Shown here in pieces: positions 618 to 12,404 of a DNA stretch of 25,270 bases. The position numbers were made by a program, and so were the translations under genes. The stretch comes from a bacterium (GTDB taxonomy: Bacteria; Zhuqueibacterota; Zhuqueibacteria; Zhuqueibacterales; Zhuqueibacteraceae). Where the stretch lies: the NCBI GenBank assembly GCA_044869275.1, contig JBIOXB010000076.1, forward strand, positions 1 through 25,270, read 5' to 3'. The notes below the pieces were generated by a model. The model saw nothing but the letters and a program-made list of their open reading frames with translations. It was not told the DNA's origin and did not search any database. Every line of letters begins with the position of its first letter. Within the stretch, counting starts at the first letter, position 1.

Positions 618-1280
618 TCAAAACAACTTGATCTTCTTGGCAATTCTGCGCAGGCTGCGGCCGAATTTTTTGGGGCGGATGACGATGTGCCGGCTTTCGC
701 CTTCGCCGGCGGAGAGCGTTTCCACACTGCCGAATTCCTTGAGCAGGTTGTGCACGATGAAGCGCTCGTAGTTGCTCATCGGCGGCAGCGCGATTTCCTC
801 GCCGCGCTCGAGTGCCTCCTGCGCCTTGCCTTCCGCGAATTTTTTCAAATTGGCGACCGGAAAGACCCAAAGCACCTGGTCTTCGCCGTCGCGGTAGGTT
901 TTGGTCTCGAACAGCATCTTGCGGCGCTCGAAATACTGGTGAATCTGCTTGCGCTCGAACGGGGCCAGATCTGGCAAACGCAGCGGCTCATGCGACGCAT
1001 TCAACTTGCTTTCCGCGGCTTGAATCATCTCTTGAATGCGTGCATCGACTTCCGGCGGCTGTTCGCGAAAGCCGCGAGGCCCACGCCCGCCGCCTTCGCG
1101 ACGCCCTCGGCCATGGCCGCCGCCTTCCGGCCGGCGCCGCGGGCCATCGCGAAATCTCTTCGGCCGGTCCGCTTCGAAAGCGGCCCTGCTGGTGGACTCG
1201 GAGCTCTGCTCGAAATCATGCTTTGAAGCTTCGGGATGATCTCCCGCGCCAGCGGAAGAATCAGAATTGTTGGGTTCCAT
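618..1280 (-). CDS. Tandem R3H-domain nucleic-acid-binding protein (Jag/EloR/KhpB-related C-terminus)
   Basis: Two R-x3-H motifs: LPDLAPFERKQIH and LPPMSNYERFIVH...GEGESRHIVI. The N-terminus is Arg/Gly-rich. Start placed at ATG 1280, 6 nt after GAGG; 1283 and 1310 are alternatives. Confidence 0.8.
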   Translation of the reverse strand: MEPNNSDSSAGAGDHPEASKHDFEQSSESTSRAAFEADRPKRFRDGPRRRPEGGGHGRGRREGGGRGPRGFREQPPEVDARIQEMIQAAESKLNASHEPLRLPDLAPFERKQIHQYFERRKMLFETKTYRDGEDQVLWVFPVANLKKFAEGKAQEALERGEEIALPPMSNYERFIVHNLLKEFGSVETLSAGEGESRHIVIRPKKFGRSLRRIAKKIKLF

Positions 1281-1334
1281 CATATGCCTCGCACCACTTG
1301 ACCACGCCATAAAAGCGCAACGATGCTCCCCGGT

Positions 1335-4813: not shown

Positions 4814-5695
4814 TCAAAACGAACCCAAGAAAATCGCCAGCAATCCCACCAGCATGCCGGCCTTGAGCACCTGGCTCGTGCGGCGCATGTGCCGCACTTC
4901 CGGCTTGCGCCACACCGTGCACAGGGCGTATCCCAACACCGGATAGACTCCAGCCAACACGCACCACAAATAAGGCTCGCGGTAATAACCAAGCGCGAAG
5001 GGAACGAGGGCGGCGGCAGCCAGCAGCACGAAGGCCGCGGTGGCCACGACTTGCGCCGTTTTCAAGCCATACGCCAAAGGCAGCGTGCGCGCCCGCGCCG
5101 CGCGATCGCCAGCTTGATCTTCGATGTCTTTCACGATCTCCCGGCCAAAATGAAACAGAAAGGCGAGCAGGGCGGGAAACATTCCAGCGCGCCATGCGGC
5201 AGGTGCGAGAGCAGAGGAGGTCGTGTGATGTGCTTCGACGCAGGCTGCAAACGCGCCGAAAATGAAGGCAAGAGCCGTGATCAAACTGACGGCCAAATTC
5301 CCGATGACGGGCTGTCGTTTGAACCAAAGACTATAAGCGATCACAATGATGGTGCTTCCACATGCAATGCACAATGCTGGCAAGTTAATGAATATACTAA
5401 AAAATATTCCGCAAACAAATAGAATTATCGTGTAGAGCTGCGCCGCGCGCCATGAGATGCGGCCGGCAGGCAGCATGCGCTCAGGTCTATTGATCCGATC
5501 GATGGCCAAATCGCACAGGTCGTTGATCACATTCGCGCCCGCGGTGATGAACATGCCCGAAAGTACCGCAAACCACACCGTGCGGCAGGCGACGGAAATA
5601 CTCGCCAATGCCGCCGCCAGCAAAACAGAAAGACCGGTGATCGCGACGTTCAATGGCCGCGTAATGGAGAGCCAGGCGCCTGCCGTGCGCATCAT
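4814..5695 (-). CDS. UbiA-family prenyltransferase, geranylgeranylglycerol-phosphate geranylgeranyltransferase (DGGGP synthase)-like
   Basis: TRPLN, NDLCDLAIDRINRPERMLPAG (NDxxDxxxD), YSLWFKRQPVIGN and REIVKDIEDQAGD motifs, with multiple TM helices. Start 5695/5692, or 5737. Confidence 0.85.
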   Translation of the reverse strand: MMRTAGAWLSITRPLNVAITGLSVLLAAALASISVACRTVWFAVLSGMFITAGANVINDLCDLAIDRINRPERMLPAGRISWRAAQLYTIILFVCGIFFSIFINLPALCIACGSTIIVIAYSLWFKRQPVIGNLAVSLITALAFIFGAFAACVEAHHTTSSALAPAAWRAGMFPALLAFLFHFGREIVKDIEDQAGDRAARARTLPLAYGLKTAQVVATAAFVLLAAAALVPFALGYYREPYLWCVLAGVYPVLGYALCTVWRKPEVRHMRRTSQVLKAGMLVGLLAIFLGSF

Positions 5696-5745
5696 GCCGA
5701 GATTCCAAAAACAAGCGGAAGTGAAATGCAGGAACATAAAGCTTT

Positions 5746-5774
5746 AACTTATCGCAATCTCATCTGAATGTCAA
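5746..5774 (-). promoter_or_regulatory. Sigma70-type promoter for the prenyltransferase-dtd-maf-rodZ-mpl run
   Basis: Minus strand reads TTGACA-17 nt-TAAGTT in the intergenic gap. Confidence 0.65.
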
Positions 5775-5788
5775 GCCTCGGGTGCATT

Positions 5789-7579
5789 CTAAAAGCTATT
5801 CACCAAGCTCACATGCACCTTGCCATTGAGCCAATCGTCCCCTTTGCCGATACCATAGTCCAATCCCACGACGCCAATCGGAGAATCCAGCCGAACCCCG
5901 AGGCCATAAGAGATTTTTACCTCCTCGCTGGTGATCTTGCCCGCGTTCGCCGGCGCTGCTTCTTCGCGAAAATAATAGCCCAGATCGCAAAACATGAAGG
6001 CGCGCGAACGCCGTGCCAACAAATACCGATATTCTATATTGCTCCAGGCCACGCGCGATCCGCGAAATTCGTCCTCCCGATAACCGCGCAACGTCGTGGC
6101 GCCGCCGAAGCGAATTTGATCCGTGATGGAAACAAACGGCTCGTCGGAGGTGACCTGCCGGCCATGCACGGCGAAGCTCACCACTTGCGGCCAAAACGTG
6201 GGCGCGAGCGCGTGAAAGTCCACGGTGACTTGCTGGCGGGTGAACCTTTGCGCGACGGCTGAAGTATCAAGGCGCTTTTGGCCATATGCCAGTGTCGTTG
6301 CAAAATAAATGCCTTTTTGCGGATTGACGAGATCGTCGCGCGAATCGTAGCGCCATCCTGCCAGGAAGTTCGTGGTGCTGCTGCCCGGCACTTGGAGGCG
6401 CAATGCCGCCAGCGAATCCGGGGAGACGCTTTCACGCGCCACCGCGCCGAGCAAAGTGATGCGCTCCGCCCAAGGCACCATTTCCAGCGTGAAATCCCAT
6501 TTGCGTTCCACGTACAAGGTGTCTTGAATCAACTGTTGAAAGCCGCCGGAAACGTGCAGAGGATAGGCGAAGATCCAGGGCTCACGATAGCGCAAGCCCA
6601 GCTCCTGCGTTTCGATTCCCCGTTTTTCCCAGCGCGCACTGAACGCCCGGCCGGTGCCGAGGAGATTATTGAAGTGCACATCAATTAGGCCGGTGAAATA
6701 TCCCTGCTGCGTTCCCGCGGCAGGATTATACCCGGCCACGCCATTAAGAAAATTGCTGTTGCCCTCTTGGACTTCGATCAGCAAGAGATAGCGGCCGCGG
6801 CCGTCCATCAGCAATTCCGGCGGCGCCACCGACTGCAAGAACCCTAGACGCATGAGCCTCTCGGGGATTTTTTGCACCTCTTCGAGATTAAATTTTCCAC
6901 CGGCTTGTACCGGGAGCTCGCGCAACAAAACCTTGGGCTGGGAGAATTTATTGCCGCGAATCAAAATCGAGTCGATGGCCACGAGCGGGCCGGGCACAAA
7001 GCTGAGATAGAGGCGCGCTTGGCGGCGCTCGGCATCTTCTTCATGATGGACTGAATCCAACTGAAATGCCGCTAGCGGATAACCTCGGCAGCCAAAATCA
7101 TACAGCACATTTTCCAAACGTCGCCGCCACTCGTTTTCGTCGTGACGCCCTCGCAACTCGCGCTCAAGGTATTTGTCAGCAGTGCTGCTGTCGCGCCAGG
7201 TGGTGGTGACGTGTAACTCTGTAGGTGTGCCGAGATAAAAGTAAAAATCGATTGTTTGATTGTCCGATTTGTCGCGACGCAATACTTTTGCGCTATCCAG
7301 GCGGGCGCCATAATAGCGCTGCGCGCGTAAATATTCCCACACCCGGCGCAAGCCACTTTCGATGTCCTGACGCTGCAATGCTTCGGCTTTGCTGAAGCCG
7401 GCTAGGCTTTCGAGTTGCGCACCGGCTTTTTTATTCTCACCCAGAACACGCGCGCGATAAAGCAGGCTGTCTGCTGGTGATTGCGCGAGAGCATGCACTT
7501 GCCCCAAGATGAAAGCGGCCAAGAGCAGGTGCCACGGTCTCAACAATTTTTTCATGCGCATTTCATTCATGAACGGCAT
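5789..7579 (-). CDS. Omp85-superfamily (BamA/TamA-like) outer membrane protein with POTRA domain(s)
   Basis: Signal peptide MKKLLRPWHLLLAAFILGQVHALA, POTRA segment IDSILIRGNKFSQPKVLLREL, NNLLGTGR, YREPW, loop motif GGATTLRGY, GLGVRLDSPIG and C-terminal Phe. Start 7579 (TAATG overlap) or 7555. Confidence 0.88.
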   Translation of the reverse strand: MPFMNEMRMKKLLRPWHLLLAAFILGQVHALAQSPADSLLYRARVLGENKKAGAQLESLAGFSKAEALQRQDIESGLRRVWEYLRAQRYYGARLDSAKVLRRDKSDNQTIDFYFYLGTPTELHVTTTWRDSSTADKYLERELRGRHDENEWRRRLENVLYDFGCRGYPLAAFQLDSVHHEEDAERRQARLYLSFVPGPLVAIDSILIRGNKFSQPKVLLRELPVQAGGKFNLEEVQKIPERLMRLGFLQSVAPPELLMDGRGRYLLLIEVQEGNSNFLNGVAGYNPAAGTQQGYFTGLIDVHFNNLLGTGRAFSARWEKRGIETQELGLRYREPWIFAYPLHVSGGFQQLIQDTLYVERKWDFTLEMVPWAERITLLGAVARESVSPDSLAALRLQVPGSSTTNFLAGWRYDSRDDLVNPQKGIYFATTLAYGQKRLDTSAVAQRFTRQQVTVDFHALAPTFWPQVVSFAVHGRQVTSDEPFVSITDQIRFGGATTLRGYREDEFRGSRVAWSNIEYRYLLARRSRAFMFCDLGYYFREEAAPANAGKITSEEVKISYGLGVRLDSPIGVVGLDYGIGKGDDWLNGKVHVSLVNSF

Positions 7580-10500
7580 TAGAAGAATAACCGCATTTCC
7601 ATTTTACCCAAATGCGCTGTGCGCGGCAGGCCGGGCTCGCGGCGGCCGAGATAGGTCAACGACACATTGATGTTGCTGGCGACGCGATACTCAAAAGCCG
7701 CATTCCAGCGAATGGTCGTGCCCGCGCGATTGCCCTTCGCCATTTCATAAGGAATGGTCGCCCCGGCCGGATCCGCCGAGATTCGTATCCATTCGAATTC
7801 ACCCCGCCAGCGTCCTTTGCCGCGCCAAGAATATGTCACGCGCGGCCGCAGCAAGAACCCATACACGGTGAGTGTTTGCTGCGGCGGCGTGGCATTGAGA
7901 TCGCGGTCATAAATCAAACCGAGGGCGTTGGCCACTTCCAGAATCGTTTTCGGGCGGTAGGATAACTCGAAATCGGCCTGGCGAATGCGCAGCTTGCGGT
8001 TGGCGCGGCCGGAAATATCGTAGGTTAGATCTTCATTGCTTAGGCGCAACTCGGTTTGGGTGCCGAGTTGGGGCGAAAGCGCCGCGAGCAGGCGAATCTC
8101 GTGCTGCATCTGCCGGCGTTTGCTGCTGCCTTCCAAAAACTGATTGTTGAGGTCGCGCAGCGCCGTCACGCGGTAGCGCAGAGATTTGTCGCGCCGGTTT
8201 TCCCAAAGAAAAAAATCCTGCTGCACGCTTTGCAGTCCAAAAAGCGTGGTGGAATCATTCAAAAACTTGGAGAGCTGCAGGCGGTAGATTTCCCAGACCT
8301 CGCTCTCCTGGGTTTTTTCTTCCAAGCGCACAAAAGTCTCCATCGAAAGCGCGGACAACGTGCGCCGCCACCACGCCGCTGGCCTGCCGGGCTTTTCCGC
8401 GTCCGGTTTCGCGGCCGAAAAAAACTGATCGAATTTCAAACGCAACTTGCCGCGCAAGCGGACTTCGACGATGGGAATGAATTCTTCCGTGTTCAATACC
8501 CGCAAAATGTAATCACCGAAAACAGGGTCAGGAACGTACTGCTTCAAATCCGGATCGAAGCGATAGTTGCCTTCTCCGCGCGGGACTTGAAGGAAAATCC
8601 GCTCCTGTTTCGAAGCTTGCGTGTTGGTGATTTGATAGAATCCGTCGGCCGTCAGGGCGCGGCGAAAAGGCGCGAATTGCATTTGCAAATCCGCGAGATC
8701 CGAGCGCGTGTCGCTCGCGCCGGCGTCTTTGAAATCCCGCTCCCGGTGAGTAAGATTCATGCCGACGGCCAGCGTTTTCCATTGCGCCAGATTGAGCGAA
8801 TAGTTTTGGCTCCAGGAAGTTGATTTGGGAATCAAGCCGGTATGGAGGCGCGTATCGTCATCGCGTTTGTTCCATGAGGTCGCGAGGCTCAAATGCCTGG
8901 TGGTTTGCCAGCCGAGTCCCGCGGTCACGCTTTCGAAGCGAAAGCCCGCGGTGGTGTCCGCGCTTTCATCCTTGCGATCCTCGGCTTCGTATCCTGCCAG
9001 GGGTTTGAGTCTTCCCAAAGTCCAGCTGAGCGTGCCGCGCTGCCGCAGCCAGGAAGATGCCGGGCCCGCGCTCGTCGAGTCAACAGCTTCATCGCGCGCG
9101 ATGTTCTCGATTTGATATCTTAATTCCGGCCAGCGCGGTTTAATGAGCGCAGTGCCGGCTTCCCAGCGCCGGGATTTTTCCTGCGCGCCGCGCTCCAGGC
9201 TGCCCACATTGCCGAAGAATCTCCAGCCCGTCACCGGCAGATAAGTCAGTGCAGATTCCAGAATTCTCTCCTGCGCCAGTTCCGCAGCAGAAAGATTCCA
9301 GCGTCGGTTGAATTCGACTACGTCGCTGCGATCGATGTCGCGATAATTCGTATCTTTGTTGCGATAAAACAACTGCCACGACATTCGTCCCGGCGAAAAC
9401 TTTCCAAATTGCAGCGGCCGCTCCTCGATCTGCAGGCGCGTCAGCCAGGCACGGCCGGTGTTGTCTTGATCGTCCAAACTCGAGTACAAATTCAAGTCCA
9501 GGCGGCTAATCGCCAATTCGTTGATCCACTGCACGCCACGCCAGGGTTGCAGCACCAGCCGGTTGTCCCAAACTTCCTGCCGTTCTGCCGGCGTCAGCAA
9601 AATCACCGGCAAATAGCGGCCCTGCTGCTTGCCGATGAATTGATAGTGGCCGAAGCTCACGTACTGGTAGTCGCCGCTGCCCTGGCCCACGTCGCTGAAG
9701 GTAACGTCGTAATCGCCGGAATCCTGGCCGGCATAAACCCAGATCGAATCTTGCTTGAAATAATCGCCGCGCTCGGGTGGAATGGCCAGGCGCGCGCCCT
9801 CGCGATAGGCGAGGTTGTCACCCGCGGCCGCGAGCGCAGCTTGATCGCTTTCCGAAAGCGAAACGCCGAGCGGATTGTTTTGGTCATCGCCTTCGCGCAA
9901 GAACGTGGTTTGGAAATCCACCTTGCGCTGCCAGGCCGAGGCGCGGCCCTGCGCGCTGTACAAGCTGCGGCGAAAGCTTTCGTCGGAATATTGAAAATCT
10001 ACCGTGATGCGCGAATCGGCCGTGATCAGGCGCCGGCGGGTGAAAGTGATTTGGCCGTTGCCGTACTCAATGACGTAATCATTGTTTTCGCCGCGCGTCA
10101 TGAGCTCGCCGTCGATCCAAACGCGCTCCGTGCCCGCCAGCACGATGACGTCAATCTGCCCGCGCTCGCCTTTTAATTGATACGGGCCTTGATTGCCTTC
10201 GAGGCCAAGAAATTCATTGGTGACGAATTGGCCGCGCGAGGTCGCACCGGAGACGGTCAAGCCGAGAGCCGAAGACGGAAGTCGAATCAGGGCGCCGCCG
10301 GCTTCAGTGCGAGCGCCAAGCTCCAGTTTTGCGCCCTGCAATTTGCGTGAATAGCGCGCGAACTCGCTGCCGCCGTATTGAATCTCGAAATCGCCCAGCG
10401 TGGCGGCAAAACGCTCGCTGCGCAGCAGCACGGCGACTTTGTCGATTTCACTCAACGTCTGCGTATTGCCTTCCGGCTGGATCGGCGTGTTTTGATCGCT

Positions 10501-11163
10501 CAAGGCCGCGATCACTTCCACGTCTTCGGCAAGCTTGCCCTCGACCTGCAAACGCAAGCCCGAATCAACTTTCAGGGCTTGATCCGTGCCCAGCGAAAGG
10601 CCGCGCGTGATGTTGCCGCGGGTGGTCAAATTCATTGCGGGGGTGCGCGCCGAATAACTGGCGCGCGTGGGTTGAAAGGCGGCGCCAGGCGGCCGCGCGG
10701 CCGCGCTTTCAGGTGGAACAGGTTTTAATGTCAAAAGCGAAAGTTTGGTGGGGAGCTGTATGGGCAGAATGCGATAGGTCAAGATGAGCGTATCGCAAGA
10801 GCCGCCGCCGCCAAACCAAAGGAGGCGCGCGACACCGTATTGCAGGTCATAGTCCTGTCCACGCCGCAACTGTGACCGGCCGCAGCGCAATGTGTCGGAG
10901 CGCGAGAGGATAAAGCTATCCGGCAACGCGAGCACCAGCGTATCATTCGAAGACAGAAAACTGAATTGCCGGAGGGTCAAAGACGAAGGCACGGAGAAGG
11001 GGAGAGCAGATTGCGCGCTGAGCGTTTGCAGATTGAAAAAACAATTCACGGCGAAGAGCAAAAAAAAGCACGCCGGTCCTGCGGTTTTCCTTTCAGATAA
11101 CGTGCGAGCGCCGCGCAGACAAACCAGGCAGAGACTTTTTACGAACGGGCAAAAGGCAAACAT
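7579..11163 (-). CDS. Large (~1190 aa) uncharacterised predicted outer-membrane beta-barrel protein with SprA-reminiscent N-terminal motifs
   Basis: Long ORF with a signal-like N-terminus ending LSAQ, many amphipathic alternating strands and a C-terminal MEMRLFF. Start uncertain (ATG 11163; ORF open to TTG 11223). Confidence 0.7.
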   Translation of the reverse strand: [1194 protein letters not shown]

Positions 11164-11292
11164 ATTTCGCGAAAAGAACGAGTATCCATGACGAAAACGC
11201 CAAGTCTCGAACCACGTTCCCAACCCTGCTGCCCTGCCGTGGAAATCATCTTAAACGGTATCCGCACCTGCGCCTAACCTTTCGGCAAGCGC

Positions 11293-11322
11293 ATCATAAG
11301 ATACTTCCAGCAGGATAGTCAA
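11293..11322 (-). promoter_or_regulatory. Sigma70-type promoter for the large OMP-Omp85 pair
   Basis: Minus strand reads TTGACT-18 nt-TATGAT upstream of the large OMP gene. Confidence 0.65.
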
Positions 11323-11414: not shown

Positions 11415-12404
11415 TTACTCCAGCGATTTCAACGCAAAAACCTGCACACGATTATTGCCGGCATCGAGCACGGCGACGAGAGCCTCGGGGTGGGCATCCC
11501 GTTCTTTTTGTTCCTGCAGTACCACCACGTCCACTGGCGCAAAGATTTCCTCCGCGCCGCTTCCGGCGTTGCCGAATTGCCCCAGCGGCTCGCCCTGTCG
11601 GTCGAATATGAAAACACCATGGCGTTTGCTATCCGCCACCAAAACGCGGTCGCGCCATTCCGTCATGCCCGCGGGCCGGGAGAGAGTATTTTCGCCCATC
11701 TGCCCGAGAAAATTGCCATAGGCGTCATACCGCATAAGCGCGTGCAGCAGCGAGTCGCTGGCCCAAATCTCGCCGCTGCGCGTCGTGAACAACTTCGCCG
11801 GACGCTCCAATTGGCCTGCGCCCCAACTGAAATCACCGAAGCTGGCTTTGGGCGCGCCGAAAATGTCGAAGCGCAGAATGCGGTTGAAATCATGATCCGC
11901 GAGAAACAATTCGCCCTGCCAGGAAAGCGTGAGCGCGGCGGGATAACCGAACTGCACGCTCACGTCGTAAGCCGGGTCTGAATAAAAAGCAGCGACGAAG
12001 TTCAAATCCTTATCATAACGCTTGACGCGGCGATTGTTGTAATCTGCCACCCAGACGTCCAAACCGTTTGCCGCCCAGACATCGACGGGCCGGTCGAATT
12101 CTTCGTCTCTAAAACCGAATCCGCCGGTCTCCAGCAAAGTATTGCTTTCCCGATTGAATTTGATCACGCGGTTGTTGCCGGTGTCGGCGAGGTAGAGGTT
12201 GCCGTTTGGATCAACCGACAGGCCAAGCGGGCCGGATAAACGGGCCAAACCGATCTTTTGATCCAGCAGCGTTTGCACGAAAACGGCTTCGATCTGAGCG
12301 TGGCCAGCTGTGATTGAAAAAGCAAACGGCAAAAAGCAAACGACACGAAGGAAGGCTTTCTTCGACGGAGCGGAGGGCATAGATTTGTTTTGCTTCAAGC
12401 TCAA
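11415..12404 (-). CDS. Secreted NHL-repeat beta-propeller protein
   Basis: Repeated PxG/DxxxD...lyvADxxNxRv units (LYLADTGNNRV, VWVADYNNRRV, LFLADHDFNRI, VLDAGNNRVQVF) and a signal peptide ending AGHA. Start TTG 12404 or ATG 12380. Confidence 0.88.
   Translation of the reverse strand: MSLKQNKSMPSAPSKKAFLRVVCFLPFAFSITAGHAQIEAVFVQTLLDQKIGLARLSGPLGLSVDPNGNLYLADTGNNRVIKFNRESNTLLETGGFGFRDEEFDRPVDVWAANGLDVWVADYNNRRVKRYDKDLNFVAAFYSDPAYDVSVQFGYPAALTLSWQGELFLADHDFNRILRFDIFGAPKASFGDFSWGAGQLERPAKLFTTRSGEIWASDSLLHALMRYDAYGNFLGQMGENTLSRPAGMTEWRDRVLVADSKRHGVFIFDRQGEPLGQFGNAGSGAEEIFAPVDVVVLQEQKERDAHPEALVAVLDAGNNRVQVFALKSLE

Follow-up and report, generated by a model that had tools for sequence, protein, structure and literature searches.

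The 25,270-nucleotide stretch of DNA analyzed here (the window: positions 1 to 25,270 of contig JBIOXB010000076.1, assembly GCA_044869275.1, from a bacterium of the KSB1 phylum) carries a giant outer-membrane β-barrel gene overlapping a gene of the Omp85 family, and raises the question of what such a pair is for. The original prediction, made from the DNA letters alone, took the barrel to be a compact paralogue of SprA, the T9SS (type IX secretion system) translocon, with its own Omp85 partner. The strongest result of our analysis is the co-inheritance of the two genes, which are kept or lost together even where they are unlinked; moreover, the barrel is found almost only alongside SprA. We propose, with a probability of roughly one half, that the barrel is a second protein-conducting pore allied to the T9SS, with presumed binding and cargo.

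The barrel gene (7579..11163, minus strand; stop codon at 7581-7579) encodes 1194 residues from the ATG at 11163, in a frame open from a TTG at 11223. This confirms the predicted open reading frame (ORF) of about 1190 residues with a signal-like N-terminus and a terminal Phe. The signal-peptide region, residues 1-50 (11014..11163, minus strand), was delimited by inspection and its true start is uncertain; it contains a hydrophobic stretch ahead of Ala-Gln (Gln51), a boundary common to homologues whose N-termini are variable. As predicted, the stop of the barrel ORF overlaps the start of the Omp85 gene (TAATG). The latter (5789..7579, minus strand) encodes a TamA-sized protein of 596 residues without a lipobox, matching Omp85 (E 6e-22) and POTRA (E 6e-11) in Pfam; two POTRA stretches and the barrel were matched, and the length suggests a third POTRA domain. 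Upstream of the barrel, across a gap of 191-251 nt, lies a gene for an NHL β-propeller (11415..12404, minus strand; 329 residues, NHL E 1e-25) with a signal-like N-terminus. The pair had been described as a discrete bicistronic unit; the conserved unit is instead made of three genes, NHL, barrel and Omp85, which very probably serve one function.

Inheritance of the module across phyla

Searching with the barrel recovered 2898 cluster representatives at E 0.001 or better, and 1833 at 1e-30. Orthologues occur in KSB1, Calditrichota, Ignavibacteria, Latescibacterota and Edwardsbacteria records; others are named from Flavobacterium, Polaribacter, Rhodothermus, Roseivirga, Flavisolibacter, Balneola and Edaphocola, and nearly all are called hypothetical. 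Co-inheritance was assayed in three samples, of 121 KSB1-phylum, 151 Bacteroidota and 61 Latescibacterota-centred genomes, which differ in profiles and thresholds; kin within them are not independent and many genomes are drafts. Summed over these 333 genomes, the barrel was detected in 270 and the Omp85 orthologue in 265, with both genes in 264 and neither in 62; a single genome has the Omp85 but not the barrel. Nearly all of the latter (58 of 62) belong to the Bacteroidota and Latescibacterota-centred samples.

Of the Bacteroidota genomes, 103 have the barrel, 120 have SprA and 101 have the Omp85 orthologue. Every one of these 101 is barrel-positive, and none of the 48 barrel-negative genomes has the Omp85. 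The weakest accepted Omp85 match was at 6e-87, with none between this value and the threshold of 1e-45. The two exceptions have divergent barrels and weak Omp85 candidates of 511 and 557 residues, the one tested joining the Omp85 clade described below. SprA is present in all 103 barrel-positive genomes; in 17 further genomes it is present while barrel and Omp85 are both absent. On a SprA tree, these 17 are scattered over eight separate places, some of them as sisters to positives. The tree included all 17 double-negatives, 23 of the 103 positives and the window's genome; one sequence (G160) sits on a very long branch and may be in the wrong frame. Relaxed searches of 8 of the 17 gave weak matches only (E 1e-28 or worse), the best being in paralogues of 645-950 residues.

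Similar behavior was observed in the Latescibacterota-centred sample, where the barrel occurs in 51 genomes and the Omp85 orthologue in 50, all among these 51. The orthologue line, E 4e-88 or better, was set after seeing the gap to BamA-sized matches. The 10 barrel-negative genomes have SprA, without the Omp85 orthologue. The propeller follows the barrel as well: strong NHL orthologues (E 3e-37 or better) were found in 70 of the 151 Bacteroidota-sample genomes, all of them barrel-positive, and three SprA-positive, barrel-negative genomes lack a strong NHL that their relatives have.

Gene linkage varies between phyla. Among the KSB1 genomes, 117 match the barrel profile, one weakly (4e-6), leaving 116; the Omp85 orthologue is present in 114 and both genes in 113. 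These 113 pairs are adjacent in 90 genomes, within 1.5-5.4 kb in 4, and on different contigs in 19, several at contig ends. The NHL gene lies upstream in 39 of 40 KSB1 loci chosen for adjacent barrel and Omp85 genes. It lies within 50 nt of the barrel ORF, or overlaps it, in 33 of 60 loci, ORF starts being mechanical. The order NHL-barrel-Omp85 recurs in Calditrichota and Latescibacterota. Ignavibacteria have the barrel alone among unrelated genes, often, in loci of this type (L046-L091), between what we take to be ABC-permease-like genes and a NUDIX-like gene. In the Bacteroidota sample, barrel and Omp85 lie within 8 kb of each other in about 5 of 101 genomes (read by eye), and the NHL gene stays next to the barrel in several lineages where Omp85 has moved. 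Synteny across the Fibrobacterota-Chlorobiota-Bacteroidota (FCB) group, which the original prediction had suggested as a check, stands for most KSB1 genomes, where the two genes are adjacent, and fails for Bacteroidota, where they are mostly unlinked. Linkage is therefore not universal, though co-inheritance is nearly perfect.

Two other arrangements were noted. One lineage (L148, L174-L177) has barrel and Omp85 separated by an opposite-strand gene of 1166-1190 codons' worth of residues and two or three housekeeping genes. In two genomes (G285:C53:185486-196662 and G296:C281:4125-15317), the Omp85 orthologue and sprA are about 5 kb apart and on opposite strands.

The barrel protein and its Omp85 partner

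The 1194-residue barrel has no Pfam match, and no match to PDB sequences was obtained with the single sequence or with a 144-sequence profile. Its closest named homologues are hypothetical proteins, mostly from candidate division KSB1. Against the SprA model TIGR04189 it scored 12.3 bits (E 0.016), short of the cut-off of 200 bits, and the nearest named family in the ESM Atlas was SprA_N at 0.86-0.87, which is a lead only. Since whole-length permissive hhalign alignments were unreliable, eight segments of a 65-sequence barrel profile were instead compared, profile to profile, with 18 KSB1 SprA sequences. E-values are those of single pairwise comparisons, and barrel residues are counted from window position 11010 (ORF residue 52). 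Four blocks matched: barrel 137-261 with SprA 241-349 (E 2e-4), 288-371, a loop domain, with 682-764 (E 3e-9), 490-553 with 818-890 (E 0.02) and 939-1073 with 2060-2186 (E 8e-4). They keep the same order in both proteins, and reversed-SprA controls gave E 0.21 or worse. The N-terminal domain also resembles SprA 667-733 (E 2e-13) and the barrel's own loop domain (E 5e-13). Judged by these profiles, the barrel is a true but distant SprA paralogue in which the long insertions of SprA are short. The three motifs that had been read as echoes of SprA all sit in SprA-aligning blocks (the first two blocks). The likeness seen in the N-terminal region stands, but its extent had been underestimated, as homology reaches the C-terminal strands.

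SprA is described as a 36-strand pore that carries a cap and opens laterally, PorV or Plug serving the opening; it binds PorV, Plug, PPI, SprE and SkpA, and exports cargo bearing a C-terminal domain (PMC10994853). The barrel family shares with SprA the four collinear blocks, running from strand 2 to the C-terminal strands, the small β domain, the FCB range, the same genomes and, presumably, the very large single-chain barrel. It is half as long (about 1000-1250 residues in nearly all orthologues, vs about 2000-2700), with about 38 predicted strands vs 36. SprA has more than 150 kDa outside the membrane (PMC12611786), whereas the barrel family has about 440 loop residues and no large cap. The companions also differ, an Omp85 and a propeller in one case, PorV, Plug, SprE and SkpA in the other. 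The barrel is also dispensable, being absent from 27 SprA-positive genomes.

The barrel region (7582..10635, minus strand) is predicted to contain 38 antiparallel strands, drawn by hand as amphipathic stretches on the barrel profile, odd strands being followed by long loops and even strands by short turns. Covariation was analyzed in 712 homologues (effective number 355). An unbiased ladder search recovered most of the hand-drawn hairpins; of the 37 consecutive strand pairs, 34 scored higher than the 99th percentile of 629 non-neighbour pairs, and the remaining three had p 0.02-0.05. Loop residues number 441 after odd strands vs 87 after even strands, which is the usual outer-membrane pattern. 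Strand residues facing inward are polar in the profile, and the terminal residue is Phe in 90% of the weight, with a gap in the remainder. These features suggest a single-chain barrel of about 38 strands, presumably closed. Simple geometry gives a diameter of about 76 Å for 38 strands, vs 72 Å for 36. TonB-dependent receptors have 22 strands and LptD has 26. Such barrels, named in the original prediction among the competing folds, were rejected: the protein has no corresponding Pfam match and a 38-strand ladder.

Conservation is highest in the loop that joins strands 3 and 4 (0.78), then in the loop domain (0.65), in strands 1-7 (0.57) and in the last strand (0.56); it is 0.34-0.41 in strands 8-37. 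The small β domain at the N-terminus (10741..10947, minus strand), probably periplasmic, repeats both the loop domain and a domain of SprA. The conserved loop domain itself, between strands 7 and 8 (9970..10230, minus strand), is probably extracellular and holds the third of the motifs first noticed. It is DUF2460-like, with weak sub-cut-off matches in 2 of 5 full-length barrel orthologues. Between strands 9 and 10 lies a Gly/Tyr-rich loop (9583..9891, minus strand) without SprA match, whose profile positions (about 385-483) are unmatched in many Latescibacterota-centred sample genomes. Natural short forms of about 1000-1050 residues (L271-L275 and others) lack this loop. A protein of 2359 residues (P0268), joining the N-terminal part of the barrel to Calx-beta repeats on a single contig, was set aside as a likely assembly chimera.

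The Omp85 was placed by a FastTree analysis of the last 400 residues. Orthologues from across the range (13) and one divergent candidate form one clade (support 0.99), separate from BamA-sized proteins and from the genome's 16 other Omp85s, including TamA. With the collinear profile match, this bears out a compact SprA paralogue with an Omp85 of its own. Known identities were rejected for the 596-residue protein: TamA (NF047950, 33.4 bits vs a cut-off of 625), TamL (no Cys in the signal region; NF052279, 19.3 bits vs 400) and BamA (about 800 residues and five POTRA domains; TIGR03303, 114.7 bits vs 297). TAM, the module for translocation and assembly (TamA-TamB, or TamL-TamB in Bacteroidota), is similar in that a TamA-sized Omp85 gene adjoins the gene of a long β-rich partner. 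However, the partner here, an outer-membrane-type barrel ending in Phe, does not belong to the AsmA/TamB proteins, and its gene comes first; the Omp85 falls in a separate clade, and the window's contig has no PF04357 match. The genome's TamA and TamB lie on another contig, TamB adjoining another Omp85, in agreement with the suggestion that the partner is not TamB. The Bacteroidota β-barrel assembly machinery (BAM; BamA, D, G and H) offers, in BamA-BamG, a precedent for an Omp85 with a second transmembrane barrel (PMC12611786), but the window's Omp85 is not BamA, and the giant partner is far larger and without PDB sequence match.

The genome (KSB1, 94% complete) also contains a canonical SprA on a separate contig (2237-residue frame), 20 above-cut-off matches to the PorV family and at least 150 to the T9SS C-terminal domain. 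Its 17 Omp85-family matches lie in frames of 413 to 1276 residues, among them a 779-residue paralogue that clusters with BamA-sized proteins in the tree and the 666-residue Omp85 beside TamB. GldM gave no match in this genome; no control matched either, so this search is uninformative. Canonical sprA, bamA and tamB, whose presence elsewhere had been named as a point to check, are present and separate from the window's pair. Because the genome has its own SprA, BamA, TamA/TamB and T9SS parts, the pair replaces none of these.

Orthologues of the Omp85 in Flavobacterium have 551-568 residues, and their neighbours are presumably rpsL and/or a SusC-like gene. Position and size make Fjoh_0402 of F. 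johnsoniae, a non-essential orphan 'TamA', the probable orthologue. This protein of 566 residues has three POTRA domains, a non-lipoprotein signal and no flanking tamB, and homologues in 11 of 30 species (PMC12045153); it adjoins Fjoh_0403, a SusC (PMC12611786). The accessible part of PMC12045153 names no partner for Fjoh_0402, and the one giant barrel of F. johnsoniae (P0431, ABQ03574.1) is the candidate that we propose. Its tag is probably Fjoh_0538, judging from the accession and from Fjoh_0533, a fructose-bisphosphatase of the kind that neighbours the barrel in relatives; Fjoh_0538 is not named in the accessible supplement of PMC12045153.

Possible functions of the module

The scheme that we favor is a three-part outer-membrane machine of the FCB group, its members possibly joined in a physical complex. 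The long protein would be an ancient SprA paralogue that kept the strand ladder and one small cap domain, lost most of the extracellular cap, and most likely acts, alongside the canonical T9SS, as a second protein-conducting pore. Protein cargo would come in from the periplasm and meet conserved loops on the side of strands 1-13. Retaining a third of the cap, such a paralogue would be a very wide pore needing a gate, and the propeller, encoded by the closest neighbour gene, is a natural candidate: once exported, it may gate or plug the pore from the periplasm, or bridge the pore and the POTRA domains. Since the Omp85 is lost together with the barrel, it would either insert this one client or stay as its partner; the TamA-sized protein may thus be a dedicated inserter that possibly remains at the side of the barrel, as PorV does with SprA. 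A fuller version of this scheme is more tentative. It describes an undescribed FCB outer-membrane transport system with the largest single-chain β-barrel (38 strands), permanently paired with the Omp85, possibly via an open seam, gated by the propeller, and exporting or displaying at the surface cargo handled by neither the T9SS nor BAM.

Several observations weigh against a T9SS-allied pore of this design. Three of the eight barrel segments (385-480, 600-760 and 760-900) match SprA no better than reversed controls. Strands 1 and 38 show no covariation signal (empirical p 0.86, 712 homologues), which leaves barrel closure unsupported. Among 233 barrel loci there is one PorV-family match and no SprA match, no T9SS gene being a regular neighbour, and no cargo gene is linked to the barrel. 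One genome (G289) has barrel and Omp85 with no SprA match, and Bacteroidia-type genomes in the 151-genome sample have no strong NHL orthologue, only weak full-length candidates. SprA occurs without this Omp85 in 27 genomes; large barrels therefore do not need this Omp85 for assembly, and size alone does not explain the need for it. Finally, deletion of Fjoh_0402, the probable Omp85 orthologue, had no effect on growth (PMC12045153).

Ranked behind the protein-conducting pore are, in this order, an accessory assembly machine, lipid export and uptake. The first of these is rather unlikely. The Omp85 would be an insertase for difficult clients, the propeller would be BamB-like, and the giant protein would be a permanent partner (a chamber, a canopy or a hybrid barrel joined to the Omp85 gate) and not a secretion pore. 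This is consistent with the loop-6 RGY motif and the conserved first and last strand retained by the Omp85, with the lack of closure signal between strands 1 and 38, and with the detection of Fjoh_0402 only in membranes of TamL-depleted cells (PMC12045153). BamA-like Omp85s with no assigned function have also been listed and proposed as assembly factors (PMC4104836). However, the even strand number and the alternating loops fit a self-closed barrel, and the nesting of the module within SprA-positive genomes would be left unexplained. The missing seam signal is weak evidence, because the seam between strands 1 and 16 of the Omp85 itself (16 hand-assigned strands) is also silent in 96 sequences. 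In 96 barrel-Omp85 pairs, no covariation between the two proteins rose above that of three shuffled pairings; the comparison was underpowered, recovering only 14 of 37 intra-chain neighbours at that depth.

Export of lipids or glycoconjugates, by an LptD- or TAM-like backup that supplies the outer leaflet with a lipid-linked anchor or a glycolipid, is improbable. The appearance of Fjoh_0402 on TamL depletion (PMC12045153) could be read in this way, as could the UbiA-family prenyltransferase gene (4814-5737, minus strand) found after the Omp85 in the window and in 6 of 78 related loci. Yet this UbiA link is local, AsmA/TamB or Lpt genes are not recurrent neighbours, the barrel is homologous to a protein translocon and the inward strand residues are polar. 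Less probable still is energised uptake, in which the pore would take in large solutes and either the N-terminal domain or the propeller would act as its plug. The barrel gene is followed, in 5 of 20 Bacteroidota neighbourhoods (L113-L117), by same-strand genes that we take to be one ExbB-like and two ExbD-like. But this link is confined to one family, no TonB-receptor Pfam match was found, no SusD-like or degradative neighbours recur, and 38 strands compare with 22. The weakest reading, that these are independent core genes present together from shared ancestry only, could draw on the mostly unlinked Bacteroidota genes, on the kinship of the genomes and on the 31 SprA-negative genomes, which may be few clades, but it is already largely refuted by joint losses at eight separate points of the SprA tree, with close relatives that retain both genes, by 10 further joint absences in a third phylum and by an operon order preserved across KSB1, Calditrichota and Latescibacterota.

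Whichever function it serves, the module is real, widespread and undescribed, with known kinds of parts in a new combination. Our full-text literature search, which covered few subscription papers, found no description of a SprA paralogue, of the gene trio or of Fjoh_0536-0538, and the accessible supplement of PMC13440311 contains no Omp85 terms. New here are the co-loss where genes are unlinked, the covariation ladder and the Fjoh_0402 link. SprA has been called the largest single-chain transmembrane barrel known (PMC13440311); if 38 strands is correct, the present family would have more strands than SprA in half the length. The findings bear on the origin of the T9SS translocon and supply a candidate partner for the unexplained orphan 'TamA' of Bacteroidota. 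As F. johnsoniae has both genes and a deletion of the probable Omp85 exists, the idea is directly testable.

Other features of the window

Promoters before and after the barrel-Omp85 pair had been taken as a sign of a discrete unit, an argument that our scan does not support. Over 11 kb, 4 sigma-70-like consensus sites were found vs 4.9 expected from shuffles. The site between the NHL and barrel genes (11293..11322, minus strand) matches at 10 of 12 positions, which is not above chance, and is not conserved, a match of at least 10/12 occurring at that place in 3 of 60 loci. The other site (5746-5774) has a perfect TTGACA, but its second hexamer matches at only 3 of 6 positions, and it is absent from the consensus-scan output.

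The UbiA-family gene lies behind a perfect TTGACA. Its closest models are those of geranylgeranylglycerol-phosphate geranylgeranyltransferase (193.7 bits vs a cut-off of 296). Further along, the window encodes a 230-residue protein (618-1310, minus strand) in which a low-complexity N-terminus precedes two R3H domain matches.

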